A stretch of 9,135 nucleotides of DNA from a virus (IMGVR_UViG_2627853765_000006:1-9135), one strand, 5' to 3'; shown: positions 1,974-9,135, counted from the first letter of the stretch. Made by a program: numbers and translations. Notes: generated by a model from the sequence alone, not told the origin.

Positions 1974-2792
1974 TTAAGCAGCCATCTGATGATATTTTTC
2001 CCTGAAGGCTGCCGGGGAGATATTCCCCAGACGAGAGTGACGACGCTGACGATTGTAGAAAATCTCAATGTATTCCCGTATTACTGAGATGGCTTCATCC
2101 CGGTTATTAAAACGATAGTGGCTCAGGCTCTCATTTTTCAGCGTTCCCCAGAAGCTTTCCATCGGAGCGTTGTCGTAACAGTGACCTTTACGCGACATTG
2201 ATGTTTTCAGACCAGACTGCTCCTGTATGACCCGGTAATCGTATGCGCAGTACTGTGAACCTCGATCAGAGTGGTGGATTAGCCCGGCAGGTGGGCGCTG
2301 GCTCCTGAGCGCCATAAACAGGGCTTTACCTGTCAGCTCTTTTGTCATGCGCTCTCCCATGGCGTAGCCGACAATTTCGCACGTATAAACATCTTTGATG
2401 CCAGCGAGGTACAACCATCCCTCCTGTGTGGCAACATACGTCAGGTCCGCCACCCAGACCTGATTTGGTGCTGTAGGAGCGAACGTCTGGTTCAGCAGAT
2501 TTGGCGCAACTGGCAGATTGTGGTTCGGGTTCGTAGTCGCTCTGAACTTGCGTTTCTGCTTACAGCGTAGCCTTAGCTCCTTACGAAGACGTGCCAGTCG
2601 GTCACGACCAACGATGATGCCATTCTCTGCCAGCTCCGTCTGGAGCCGCCGGGTTCCATATGTTTCGCGAGTGCGGATATGTGCCACCTTAATCTCCAGT
2701 TTTAGCCGCTCATCACTTTGTTTTCTGTCTGAGGGTTCATGCTGTACCCAGTTGTAATAACCGCTCCTGGATACACCAAATACCTGACACAT
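1974..2792 (-). CDS. IS3-family transposase OrfB (IS600-like), DDE domain; probably expressed as an OrfAB fusion by -1 frameshift
   Basis: 272-aa ORF with integrase-core motifs (…HSDRGSQY…, …[17 protein letters not shown]…) typical of IS3-family OrfB; lies downstream of orfA inside the IS. Confidence 0.85.
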
Positions 2793-2827
2793 CGCTTCAA
2801 TGGGAAATTGTTGTCGCCATTGTTCGA

Positions 2828-3130
2828 TTAACGCGTATTTTTCAGCGACTCCTGTGCAAAATACGCTGTTGCTTTTTTTAATATATCTCGCTCAAGGCGA
2901 GCTTCATTTAACGCCTTACGCAGTTGCAGAATTTCAGATTCCAGTTCAGCCACCGTGCGGGAACCAGGAGTACCGAGCCCTTTTCTGGCGGCGGTAACCC
3001 ATTGTCCTAAAGTGCCTTCAGGAAGGGATAATCGGGAAGCGCCTTCACTGATCGAAAGTTGATTTTCAAGAACCGTTCTGACAGCTTCGGCTTTGAACTC
3101 TTTAGAGTAACGTTGGTTTTTTCTGCTCAT
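2828..3130 (-). CDS. IS3-family transposase OrfA (IS600-like), HTH and leucine-zipper
   Basis: 100-aa ORF MSRKNQRYSKEFKAEAVRTVLENQLSISEGASRLSLPEGTLGQWV… matching IS600 OrfA as I recall it; positioned at the IRL-proximal end of the IS. Confidence 0.85.
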   Translation of the reverse strand: MSRKNQRYSKEFKAEAVRTVLENQLSISEGASRLSLPEGTLGQWVTAARKGLGTPGSRTVAELESEILQLRKALNEARLERDILKKATAYFAQESLKNTR

Positions 3131-3194
3131 TATTAGCTCCTTCTGATGCCATTCTATTTCAGGAAGGAGTGTCCGTTAAACTCAGGCTACCTCA

Positions 3195-3434
3195 GCGGTT
3201 ACCCTGGCGACGCGCCTTACGCGTTAACCAGCCTTCTGCTTCCAGCCGTGCGATAGCCGTTCTGACGGTACTCATCCCCGCGCCAATCTGACGGGCAATG
3301 GTTTCAATTGATGGCCAGCACACACCTTCGTCATTACTGAAATCAGCCAGGCGGGCCATAATTGCCACGCTGGATAACTTCATGCCTGATGCAGCGCAAC
3401 CATCCCATACATAGCCGGTTAATTTAGTGCTCAT
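3195..3434 (-). pseudogene. lambdoid replication-initiation protein (O-like), N-terminal winged-helix fragment, truncated by IS600
   Basis: 80 codons (MSTKLTGYVWDGCAASGMKLSSVAIMARLADFSNDEGVCWPSIETIARQIGAGMSTVRTAIARLEAEGWL…) with the C-W-P-S…IA…G-S-RTV…AI..LE..GWL pattern of HTH_36-type N-domains of phage replication initiators. The frame runs into the IS600 end, which supplies the stop (3192-3194). Confidence 0.6.
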
Positions 3435-3443
3435 GACCGACCT

Positions 3444-3782
3444 CTATTTCCCTGAATTTACGACGAAACTGTTCGAGCGGACTGAAGCATTCATGCTCAT
3501 AACCTCCGCGGAGGTAGATAACCCGCTGTGTTTCCGGCTCCCAACGAATGACTCTGACGGGCACTCCGTAGTGATCTTTGAACCAGCGGTTAACTTGTCG
3601 CAAAGGACTGTCTCCTTCTGCCGGTTGAAATCACCCACAGCCCACTCTGCAAAGCTGTGGGTTACAATTTCCCTGTCACCTGGTACATTCACTGCATAGC
3701 AATATTTCACCTTCGCTTTTCCACCCGGTACAGAAAGCGCAATCAGTTGCGAGCGACGGTAGTGTGTTGTTAAACTGTTCAT
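3444..3782 (-). CDS. hypothetical prophage protein, probably frameshifted (protein-like continuation in the -1 frame to 3424)
   Basis: 112-aa ORF whose ATG (3780-3782) overlaps the stop of the upstream CII-like gene (ATGA). Its C-terminal half is Ser-rich and low-complexity, whereas the -1 frame over 3424..3630 reads …[64 protein letters not shown]. Confidence 0.4.
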
Positions 3783-4348
3783 GCGTTAGTTTCTCCACAA
3801 CCAGAAGCAATCGACGCCACGACGCCCGGAGCTGCACACTCGCGGGCGTCATTACTTTCTGAAATGCAAAAAATTTTGTAGACAAGTGCTGCATGCTCCT
3901 GCAGCTTCGAAATTGAGAGATACAGCTCGTCGTTAATTGCTGTCTTCTCATGCGGTTCCACTACACCGTCTTCGATTGCTGAACGAATCTGTTTTGAATA
4001 ACTGCCGATCTGTTCAATGACTTCCAGCAGACGCTGGTTAATATCGGCGTTGTCCACATCCTCGATGTCAGGAAGAGACACAAAGACGCCATTTGCAGAC
4101 TGCGCCACAGCATCAGCAATGAAGTGAGTGCCACCAGCACGCTGTAAAACCATTGCCCATCCCAGCGGGAAAATCTGATCGCCATCTGCACGAAGGCGGT
4201 TGAATAAAGCGTTTTCTGTTACATCGAGCCAGTCAGCCGCTTCAGCGTAACCACCCGGCAACTTTGCGATAGTTTTTCTGACAGCTTTCACGTACCACTC
4301 AGGCTGTTTTTCTATTTTCCAGTGATGCTTACCCACGATTAGCCTCAT
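3779..4348 (-). CDS. phage regulatory protein, CII-like (YdaT-type) downstream of cro
   Basis: 189-aa ORF directly downstream of the Cro-like gene on the same strand, with an N-terminal HTH-like segment ([27 protein letters not shown]). Position and size fit the YdaS/YdaT (Cro/CII-analogue) pair of Rac-type prophages; family assignment is from memory. Confidence 0.55.
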
Positions 4349-6024: not shown

Positions 6025-6300
6025 GTGGCTTCTGTTTCTATCAGCTGTCCCTCCTGTTCAGCTACTGACGGGGTGGTGCGTAACGGCAAAAGCACTGCCG
6101 GACATCAGCGCTATCTCTGCTCTCACTGCCGTAAAACATGGCAACTGCAGTTCACTTACACCGCTTCTCAACCCGGTACGCACCAGAAAATTATTGATAT
6201 GGCCATGAATGGCGTTGGATGCCGGGCAACTGCACGCATTATGGGCGTTAGCCTCAACACGATTTTACGTCACTTAAAAAACTCAGGCCGCAGTCGGTAA
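6025..6300 (+). CDS. insA: IS1 InsA (transposition inhibitor/DNA-binding protein)
   Basis: 91-aa ORF (GTG start) [43 protein letters not shown]… matching IS1 InsA. Confidence 0.9.
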
Positions 6301-6344
6301 CCTCGCGCATACAGCCGGGCAGTGACGTCATCGTCTGCGCGGAA

Positions 6345-6722
6345 ATGGACGAACAGTGGGGATACGTCGGGGCTAAATCGCGCCAGCGCTGGCTGTTTTA
6401 CGCGTATGACAGGCTCCGGAAGACGGTTGTTGCGCACGTATTCGGTGAACGCACTATGGCGACGCTGGGGCGTCTTATGAGCTTGCTGTCACCCTTTGAC
6501 GTGGTGATATGGATGACGGATGGCTGGCCACTGTATGAATCCCGCCTGAAGGGAAAGCTGCACGTAATCAGCAAGCGATATACGCAGCGAATTGAGCGGC
6601 ATAACCTGAATCTGAGGCAGCACCTGGCACGGCTGGGACGGAAGTCGCTGTCGTTCTCAAAATCGGTGGAGCTGCATGACAAAGTCATCGGGCATTATCT
6701 GAACATAAAACACTATCAATAA
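6345..6722 (+). CDS. insB: IS1 InsB (transposase domain; normally made as InsAB' by -1 frameshift from insA)
   Basis: ORF …[110 protein letters not shown] matching IS1 InsB. The ORF-track start is the first in-frame ATG; the true frame opens upstream within the 3' end of insA. Confidence 0.8.
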
Positions 6723-6737
6723 GTTGGAGTCATTACC

Positions 6738-7074
6738 CAGACGGCGTACCACACAGGAAAAGATCGCAATTGTTCAGCAGAGCTTTGAACCGGGGATGAC
6801 GGTCTCCCTCGTTGCCCGGCAACATGGTGTAGCAGCCAGCCAGTTATTTCTCTGGCGTAAGCAATACCAGGAAGGAAGTCTTACTGCTGTGGCCGCCGGA
6901 GAACAGGTTGTTCCTGCCTCTGAACTTGCTGCCGCCATGAAGCAGATTAAAGAACTCCAGCGCCTGCTCGGCAAGAAAACGATGGAAAATGAACTCCTCA
7001 AAGAAGCCGTTGAATATGGACGGGCAAAAAAGTGGATAGCGCACGCGCCCTTATTGCCCGGGGATGGGGAGTAA
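6738..7074 (+). pseudogene. insC: IS2 InsC (OrfA), N-terminally truncated at the IS1 junction
   Basis: …[111 protein letters not shown] matches IS2 InsC from about residue 10; the apparent TTG start at 6724 and first residues MESLP come from the IS1 terminus. Confidence 0.8.
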
Positions 7075-7937
7075 GCTTAGTCAGCCGTTGTCTCCGGGTG
7101 TCGCGTGCGCAGTTGCACGTCATTCTCAGACGAACCGATGACTGGATGGATGGCCGCCGCAGTCGTCACACTGATGATACGGATGTGCTTCTCCGTATAC
7201 ACCATGTTATCGGAGAGCTGCCCACGTATGGTTATCGTCGGGTATGGGCGCTGCTTCGCAGACAGGCAGAACTTGATGGTATGCCTGCGATCAATGCCAA
7301 ACGTGTTTACCGGATCATGCGCCAGAATGCGCTGTTGCTTGAGCGAAAACCTGCTGTACCGCCATCGAAACGGGCACATACAGGCAGAGTGGCCGTGAAA
7401 GAAAGCAATCAGCGATGGTGCTCTGACGGGTTCGAGTTCTGCTGTGATAACGGAGAGAGACTGCGTGTCACGTTCGCGCTGGACTGCTGTGATCGTGAGG
7501 CACTGCACTGGGCGGTGACTACCGGCGGCTTCAACAGTGAAACAGTACAGGACGTCATGCTGGGAGCGGTGGAACGCCGCTTCGGCAACGATCTTCCGTC
7601 GTCTCCAGTGGAGTGGCTGACGGATAATGGTTCATGCTACCGGGCTAATGAAACACGCCAGTTCGCCCGGATGTTGGGACTTGAACCGAAGAACACGGCG
7701 GTGCGGAGTCCGGAGAGTAACGGAATAGCAGAGAGCTTCGTGAAAACGATAAAGCGTGACTACATCAGTATCATGCCCAAACCAGACGGGTTAACGGCAG
7801 CAAAGAACCTTGCAGAGGCGTTCGAGCATTATAACGAATGGCATCCGCATAGTGCGCTGGGTTATCGCTCGCCACGGGAATATCTGCGGCAGCGGGCTTG
7901 TAATGGGTTAAGTGATAACAGATGTCTGGAAATATAG
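7032..7937 (+). CDS. insD: IS2 InsD (OrfB, DDE transposase domain; normally expressed as InsCD by -1 frameshift)
   Basis: 301-aa [52 protein letters not shown]… matching IS2 InsD; overlaps the 3' end of insC in the -1 frame. Confidence 0.85.

Positions 7938-8473: not shown

Positions 8474-9135
<662 letters not shown>

Follow-up and report, generated by a model that had tools for sequence, protein, structure and literature searches.

The window (the whole 9,135-nt stretch of viral DNA analysed here) holds proA (1-1254) and tRNA-Thr(CGT) (1369-1444), adjoined by a decayed lambdoid prophage whose contents include an integrase fragment, a cI-like S24 repressor, several IS elements and a holin gene. 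The prophage is heavily degraded: besides the several IS insertions, its O, integrase and lysozyme genes are truncated, and a truncated ORF that overlaps and follows the holin gene is, together with that gene, cut off from the remaining prophage. Such a layout, an IS-riddled prophage beside proA/tRNA-Thr, is typical of Shigella. The minus strand keeps the order of an early-right operon (cro-like gene, the cII-like gene ymfL, the ymfM/DUF4222 region, O-like gene), and the DNA of this region is 97-99% identical to that of phages SfII, SfIV, Kati and others, several of which name the flanking genes YmfL and YmfM. It was matched in 2053 of 5426 complete E. coli genomes, among them K-12 with its e14 element, to which the identity is 98.8%. 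This early-right operon, which is repressed in lysogens, is that of a lambdoid prophage of the e14/SfII type. The tRNA was the sole match in an Rfam scan, and a promoter and terminator scan returned nothing convincing within the ymfM/DUF4222 region. The main features are:

3779..4348, minus strand: ymfL, a cII-like gene of 189 aa (Pfam Phage_CP76, CII family, E 2.6e-13; RefSeq homologue ymfL)
3779..3782, minus strand: ATGA junction between the ymfL stop and the ymfM start (TGA 3781-3779 overlaps ATG 3782-3780)
3444..3782, minus strand: ymfM-like long ORF of 112 aa, homologue of the e14 cell division inhibitor YmfM/SfiC
3612..3782, minus strand: ymfM N-terminal domain, about 57 codons, the sole part of the long ORF under amino-acid constraint
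3612..3617, minus strand: Shine-Dalgarno sequence AAGGAG of the DUF4222 gene, 8 nt upstream of its TTG (3603-3601)
3424..3603, minus strand: DUF4222 gene of 59 aa with a TTG start, in the -1 frame; predicted RgdR-like small beta-barrel protein
3444..3603, minus strand: S/T-rich ymfM tail of 53 aa lying over DUF4222, a 160-nt out-of-frame overlap
3444..3446, minus strand: ymfM stop TAG, overlapping the Shine-Dalgarno sequence of the replication gene (GAGG, 3444-3441), 9 nt before its ATG and in the same frame
3192..3434, minus strand: O-like replication gene, N-terminal 80 codons only (Pfam HTH_36, E 3e-12); truncated
1974-3130: IS3-family OrfA and OrfB, about 60 nt beyond the point at which the O-like gene is truncated
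6025-6722: IS1
6724-7937: second IS3-family element
8482-9135: third IS3-family element, at the window edge

The 112-aa ORF (3444..3782, minus strand) begins as the first-pass annotation had described it, with the same N-terminal sequence and with an ATG coupled by ATGA to the upstream ORF (3779..4348). It matches phrog_1170 over residues 1-112 (E 2.3e-66), a Pfam search of the frame matched no family, and the protein matches a Shigella boydii entry at 100% identity, differing from the common form of YmfM at a few residues (P17S, E26K). The window and K-12 e14 have the synteny ymfL-ymfM-replication gene in common, and ACGCATGA or CCGCATGA is kept at the ymfL/ymfM junction in nearly all related loci. 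The N-terminal part of about 57 residues exists as several types with a common motif: A (e14 YmfM), B, C and an SfV type. Within types its NG86 dN/dS is 0.37 (A), 0.26 (B) and 0.33 (C), and the type-A alignment has 29 invariant columns in residues 1-51 and none in the tail beyond L60/C61. The remainder of the frame is Ser-rich, as had been noted, with 12 S in 53 residues, and an AF2 model of YmfM was uninformative (pLDDT 39.6).

Opposite the ymfL/ymfM junction and the ymfM RBS of K-12, Shinhara et al. 2011 (PMC3175480) report a candidate cis-antisense sRNA, ECS003, as the most abundant of their candidates. It corresponds to 3740-3865 on the plus strand of the window and resembles the lambda oop RNA; on that strand, AUUACUUUCU comes directly after a GC-rich hairpin (about 3821-3850), a combination that would suit an ECS003 terminator (z -1.8).

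Nested in the second half of ymfM, the -1 frame is open from 3630, just after the TGA at 3633-3631 that closes it upstream, to the TAA at 3426-3424, and its TTG at 3601-3603 is preceded at good spacing by AAGGAG (3617-3612, 8 nt upstream), again in agreement with the first-pass annotation, which had also judged this frame to be the more protein-like. It proved to encode a DUF4222 protein: the ORF matches Pfam PF13973 with E 9.6e-18 and 63.9 bits (cut-off 27) across profile positions 3-52, that is, 50 of 53, and phrog_1343 with E 6e-34. In PHROGs, phrog_1170 (the 112-aa frame) and phrog_1343 (DUF4222) are separate families, both of unknown function. An AF2 model of the protein is a confident beta-barrel (pLDDT 82.7), and 118 database homologues, mostly of 59-70 aa, are named DUF4222 across Enterobacterales. 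The start codon is TTG, ATG or GTG in all loci, with ATG in most relatives, and GGAGG-like purine runs stand 7-12 nt upstream of it in every locus. Phages of Serratia, Yersinia, Morganella and Providencia carry DUF4222 as a gene by itself, and RgdR is a further stand-alone case. These data, with the selection estimates given below, support the -1 ORF as a real DUF4222 gene that would use its own Shine-Dalgarno sequence and start codon and that is under strong purifying selection.

Several further elements lie in or near this gene. An 11-bp perfect hairpin (CCCACAGCUUU...GGGCUGUGGG) occupies 3633-3661 on the minus strand, in the coding region of the N-domain just upstream of the DUF4222 Shine-Dalgarno sequence, and in a weak 6-bp hairpin that Shine-Dalgarno sequence pairs with bases one and two of the TTG; the local RNA fold, taken over the whole stretch, is not exceptional (z -1.36). 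On the opposite strand, a 90-aa antisense ORF (3427-3699, plus strand) faces DUF4222 and part of ymfM, and a Klebsiella phage record (L002, 1652-1939) annotates its homologue as a hypothetical protein; the ORF is probably no more than a shadow of the conserved gene.

The two-frame layout is widely conserved. A scan of viral contigs gave near-identical e14-type copies only, which served as a measure of intactness and not as a source of diversity; both frames are intact in all 79 of them, as they are in E. coli K-12 and in the viable phages SfII, SfIV and Kati. A scan of one genome per species yielded the same layout in 39 loci from Escherichia, Shigella, Citrobacter, Enterobacter, Kosakonia, Kluyvera, Raoultella, Leclercia, Phytobacter, Atlantibacter, Buttiauxella and others, with DUF4222 proteins 66-97% identical to that of the window. 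All 39 loci have an ATG 167-179 nt upstream of the DUF4222 start, usually within ACGCATGA and overlapping the stop of the preceding gene, and in all 39 the frame from this ATG crosses DUF4222 in the +1 frame and ends at a stop between +157 and +163; in nearly all loci the third frame is already closed at +5 or +11. Klebsiella and Pantoea phages have the same two-frame layout. The tail is nearly constant in length (52-55 codons), and four or more N-domain types carry it. In the Klebsiella phage KpF5 (L003, 1484-1873) no stop closes the DUF4222 frame upstream any longer, and from a GTG it stays open for 129 codons; therefore both frames are open there over the whole ymfM region.

Other relatives arrange the same parts differently. 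In Providencia, a type-C-like N-domain gene reaches its stop 11 nt inside DUF4222, whose own stop overlaps the ATG of the replication gene; with overlaps at both junctions, three genes are thus chained by short overlaps. Serratia, Yersinia and Morganella phages carry a stand-alone DUF4222 followed by the replication gene, which encodes either O or primosomal protein I. Entomohabitans has an internal deletion of DUF4222, and there the replication gene directly adjoins a type-A gene of 78 aa. The +1 frame of SfV, Stx and Hafnia phages meets neither a stop nor an ATG after DUF4222 and runs on into a Pfam Phage_ASH domain: the 278-aa product of SfV orf37 (L130, 552-1388) has its Ash domain at residues 117-210. 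These Ash-fused ORFs (SfV orf37; L131; L133, 684-1367; L137) range from 227 to more than 330 aa and overprint an unannotated DUF4222 gene; that of L131 has a Rha domain besides the Ash domain. To judge from this continuity, SfV-type phages must read through the tail frame to make the Phage_ASH domain, since neither a stop nor an ATG separates the two. The layouts of these relatives (Providencia; Serratia, Yersinia and Morganella; Entomohabitans; SfV, Stx and Hafnia phages) indicate that DUF4222 is the older frame and that the ymfM tail is a younger, overprinted extension.

Selection on the overlap was estimated with a simplified implementation of an OLGenie-like site classification, applied to 38 distinct sequences over 52 gapless codons; the compared sites are saturated. 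For DUF4222, dNN/dSN was 0.06 (CI 0.03-0.125). For the ymfM tail, dNN/dNS was 0.94 (CI 0.62-1.45), which is no detectable amino-acid constraint, and the sites that are synonymous in DUF4222 and change the tail are saturated (p = 0.73). Purifying selection on amino acids in both products, as a criterion of overprinting, was thus found in DUF4222 (0.06) and not in the tail (0.94). The first-pass annotation had proposed that the gene between the CII-like gene and the replication gene switches coding frame midway. For amino-acid selection this holds: the N-domain is constrained (0.26-0.37), DUF4222 is constrained (0.06) and the tail is not (0.94), and therefore amino-acid selection switches frame midway. 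The long frame itself is still kept open. The GC3 comparison that had been suggested for telling the frames apart was run and did not discriminate between them on such short stretches.

That the long frame is kept open can be read from the codons of DUF4222. When its synonymous codons were resampled, the mean probability per sequence that the +1 frame stays open was 0.056 with E. coli codon usage or 0.28 with within-gene permutation, against which observed openness was 38/38 (expectation 0.06-0.28 per sequence). Where a synonymous choice could create a +1 stop, Val is encoded by GTT or GTC in 97/97 cases, compared with 18/52 for GTG or GTA elsewhere, and Leu by CTC or CTT in 55/55. The safe codons alternate by lineage (at one site GTC 20 times and GTT 18 times), which means that the stop-risk sites do mutate. 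With one representative for each of 14 clusters, defined at 70% third-position identity, stop-making synonymous codons were used at 0 of 60 positions and codons ending in TA or TG at 20 of 67 where no stop is possible (Fisher p 6e-7); the loci are phylogenetically related, and combined p-values are for that reason not exact. Only four sequences have less than 50% pairwise third-position identity, and the most conservative openness product, calculated from these four, is 0.025. Among five stand-alone DUF4222 genes used as a control, three (RgdR, Serratia, Morganella) have stops in the +1 frame; those of Yersinia and Providencia, both distant, have none. We read these patterns as evidence that the long frame is a maintained ORF, in which stop-making codons are avoided and the terminal stop is selected. 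Given the lack of amino-acid constraint, the word "gene" fits the tail only in this sense of a maintained ORF. In this respect the first-pass annotation had underrated the 112-aa frame, which is no annotation artefact: codons that would make a stop in it are avoided, and the stop that closes it just before the next gene is under selection.

The position of that stop is itself conserved. Across clusters, the DUF4222 codon that supplies it is without exception a rare xTA (ATA, TTA, CTA or GTA) with A or G as the next base, and the residue encoded there varies (I, L or V). In nearly all loci the ymfM stop overlaps the downstream Shine-Dalgarno sequence (TAGAGG, TAAAGGA) and stands 6-9 nt before the next ATG, and this holds for five different types of downstream gene, usually a replication gene. 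The DUF4222 stop falls at varying distances past the downstream ATG, giving proteins of 59 to 86 aa. In the window, the overlap of the -1 frame with the start of the O-like gene is as the first-pass annotation had it: ATGAGCACTAA spans the start codon of the O-like gene (ATG, 3434-3432) together with the TAA that ends the -1 frame. The geometry of translational coupling is thus found at both ends of ymfM, as ATGA at ymfL/ymfM and as TAG-N9-ATG at ymfM/O; the fold around the ymfM stop and the O start is nothing notable (z +1.17). Intact homologues of the O-like gene encode 281-455 aa, and since the replication gene is here cut by an IS, the ymfM/DUF4222 layout in the window may be a relic.

The downstream ATG is always in the reading frame of the ymfM stop, at a distance of 9 or 12 nt, and loss or read-through of that stop would therefore fuse YmfM to the downstream protein. 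A fusion of this type has happened with Ash in SfV-type phages.

Taken together, the comparative data favor two real, overlapping genes on the same strand, in which an older DUF4222 has been overprinted by an extension of ymfM whose frame and stop position are selected; we put the probability of this reading at roughly 0.8. In such an arrangement, ribosomes would pass from ymfL into ymfM through the ATGA-coupled start, would translate the first ~57 codons, which encode the selected domain, and would then continue across the nested gene; DUF4222 would be made by independent initiation at its own Shine-Dalgarno sequence and TTG. The last 53 codons of ymfM would constitute the overprinted extension, whose sequence drifts freely, and ribosomes leaving it would terminate on the Shine-Dalgarno sequence of the replication gene and promote its translation by termination-reinitiation coupling. 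In SfV-type phages the same frame would serve as a linker fused to the downstream Ash domain. That the frame is held open for the sake of this coupling to the start of the replication gene is suggested by the geometry alone, and we offer it tentatively, at slightly less than even odds; ribosomes translating DUF4222 likewise pass the start of the O gene, which speaks against it.

The main alternative to coupling as the purpose of the open frame, and one that could hold alongside it, is strict dual coding, in which the Ser/Thr-rich tail is itself functional (as a disordered linker, a degron or an interaction tail) and is selected for length or composition. The maintained openness and the nearly fixed length of 52-55 codons would fit such a role, as would the occurrence of the same tail on at least four N-domain types and its onward fusion to Ash in SfV-type phages, and the confidence interval of its dNN/dNS (0.62-1.45) leaves room for weak constraint. 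Its point estimate of 0.94 and its saturated tail-changing sites (p 0.73), however, amount to no sequence constraint; N-domain genes also exist with short, unrelated tails (the 78-aa gene of Entomohabitans and that of Providencia, with its stop 11 nt into DUF4222), and the low-confidence model of YmfM (pLDDT 39.6) tells nothing of a fold. We therefore regard a functional tail as rather unlikely. Much less credit is due to the possibility that DUF4222 alone is real and the 112-aa ORF a non-functional frame open by chance. This is in effect how PGAP presents the locus (only DUF4222 is called in K-12 and the other E. coli records inspected, with a 175-nt gap after ymfL), and both the unconstrained tail and the lack of a Pfam family for the 112-aa frame would agree with it, but it leaves unexplained an N-domain with dN/dS of 0.26-0.37 and 29 invariant residues, which persists as a gene where DUF4222 is deleted, as well as the conserved ATGA-coupled start, the avoidance of stop-making codons, the positioned stop and the Ash fusion of SfV-type phages; we consider it very unlikely.

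Programmed -1 ribosomal frameshifting, which would join the N-domain to DUF4222 in a fusion of ~118 aa, is more improbable still. The two frames do stand in a -1 relation, and the databases contain a few in-frame fusions of N-domain and DUF4222 (P0031, P0053, P0058, P0065), but these have four different junctions, each from a single contig, and are best taken as sporadic indels or assembly errors. No X_XXY_YYZ heptamer occurs in the 112-aa frame, which bears out the first-pass annotation on this point; the -1 frame has a stop 27 nt before the DUF4222 start, and its own Shine-Dalgarno sequence and start codon; DUF4222 stands alone elsewhere; and the local RNA fold is unexceptional (z -1.36). 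The programmed -1 frameshift cassettes of dnaX, IS3 orfAB and the tail chaperone G/GT resemble the locus in that the second frame is -1 relative to the first, and differ from it in their slippery site and conserved fusion product, both absent here, and in that the -1 frame of the locus is started independently. The first-pass annotation had left two alternatives, a frameshift-inactivated gene or two overlapping small genes. The second stands, DUF4222 being well supported as a real gene. As for the first, a single ancestral gene of ~115 aa inactivated by a frameshift in a decaying prophage would suit the state of this one, with its IS elements and its truncated O, integrase and lysozyme genes, but 79/79 viral contigs, several viable phages and all 39 species-level loci have the same layout intact, and this candidate is ruled out by it, leaving a chance close to nil; nor was there any homologue family with the single conserved ORF of about 115 aa that had been envisaged. 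It had also been argued that homologues with a 112-aa frame conserved along its full length under purifying selection, and with an interrupted -1 frame, would speak against a frame switch. The long frame was indeed open over its full length, but its tail was unconstrained and the -1 frame was never interrupted.

Out-of-frame embedded genes are familiar from phages, as in lambda Rz/Rz1 and the lysis genes of phiX174 and MS2, where both products are constrained proteins. The present locus is like these in that one strand is read in two frames and the nested ORF, with its own Shine-Dalgarno sequence and start, is kept in relatives; unlike them, the overprinting frame of ymfM is without amino-acid constraint and has only stop avoidance and a positioned stop. 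Orf37 of the SfV "immunity region" (278 aa) and the Ash/Rha ORFs of Stx and Hafnia phages come closer, with the same ATGA-coupled start and the same +1 passage through DUF4222; they differ from the window in having no stop before the next module, so that one ORF runs into Phage_ASH.

The nested protein has a characterized relative. RgdR (ECs1581), from prophage CP-933C/Sp7 of EHEC O157, activates LEE1 and type III secretion and represses motility, and its RGD motif at residues 20-22 is important for activity (Flockhart et al. 2012, PMC3378721). RgdR matches Pfam DUF4222 (E 2e-23) and is 39% identical to the DUF4222 protein of the window over 49 residues (E 5e-10), which by this similarity is an RgdR homologue. 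In E. coli O157 Sakai, RgdR (ECs_1581; L138, 8304-8603) has an ATGA overlap with the primase gene directly downstream; the lambdoid DUF4222 genes likewise directly precede a replication gene whose start overlaps their stop. Unlike the window protein, RgdR is 99 aa long and comes from a free-standing gene of a P4-like element, with the +1 frame interrupted by stops, and its RGD aligns with NRW in the window protein, so that the motif is not conserved. The kinship with RgdR and a Tudor-like fold would hint that the lambdoid DUF4222 protein may bind RNA polymerase or DNA.

The orthologous 112-aa ORF of e14, ymfM, lies in the same place between ymfL and the replication gene, and e14 YmfM (b1148) has been identified as SfiC, an SOS-inducible inhibitor of FtsZ-ring formation whose expression causes filamentation, the block to the Z-ring having been tested for the e14 allele only (Ansari et al., bioRxiv 10.1101/2020.11.19.390815). 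Published work treats e14 ymfM as one simple ORF, whereas here its second half overlaps the conserved DUF4222 gene; in our literature searches, no paper connected ymfM with DUF4222 or with a second, overlapping frame. Annotation is divided in the same way. The reference K-12 record NC_000913.3 has only ymfM (b1148, "cell division inhibitor YmfM"), and PGAP, in a second K-12 assembly as well as in all genomes sampled, has only the 59-aa DUF4222 ORF (WP_001250269.1), leaving 175 nt empty after ymfL, such that two RefSeq records of K-12 MG1655 disagree (DUF4222 by PGAP at 1398-1577 of L004 versus curated ymfM at 2823-3161 of L129).

For biology, this matters since ymfM/sfiC is a characterized E. 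coli K-12 gene of which each main annotation system shows one ORF only, and since the nested protein belongs to the family of RgdR, an EHEC virulence regulator. The constructs that assign the filamentation phenotype to ymfM all carry the nested Shine-Dalgarno sequence, the TTG and most or all of the codons: the filamentation clone D1-8E (ymfL 142-185, ymfM, ymfN 1-92) includes the entire nested gene, and the pBAD24-ymfM ORF clone includes the DUF4222 Shine-Dalgarno sequence, the TTG and at least 52 of its 59 codons. Because the published clones carry both frames, SfiC activity may in principle be encoded by either of them. It is conceivable, if doubtful, that the SfiC phenotype comes from or needs the DUF4222 protein, or that the ymfM frame is a selected "ribosome bridge" whose peptide is irrelevant. 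The two products are separable by one mutation each, synonymous in one frame. More generally, the locus would be a clean natural case of an overprinted frame that is selected for its openness and its stop site, and not for the sequence that it encodes.
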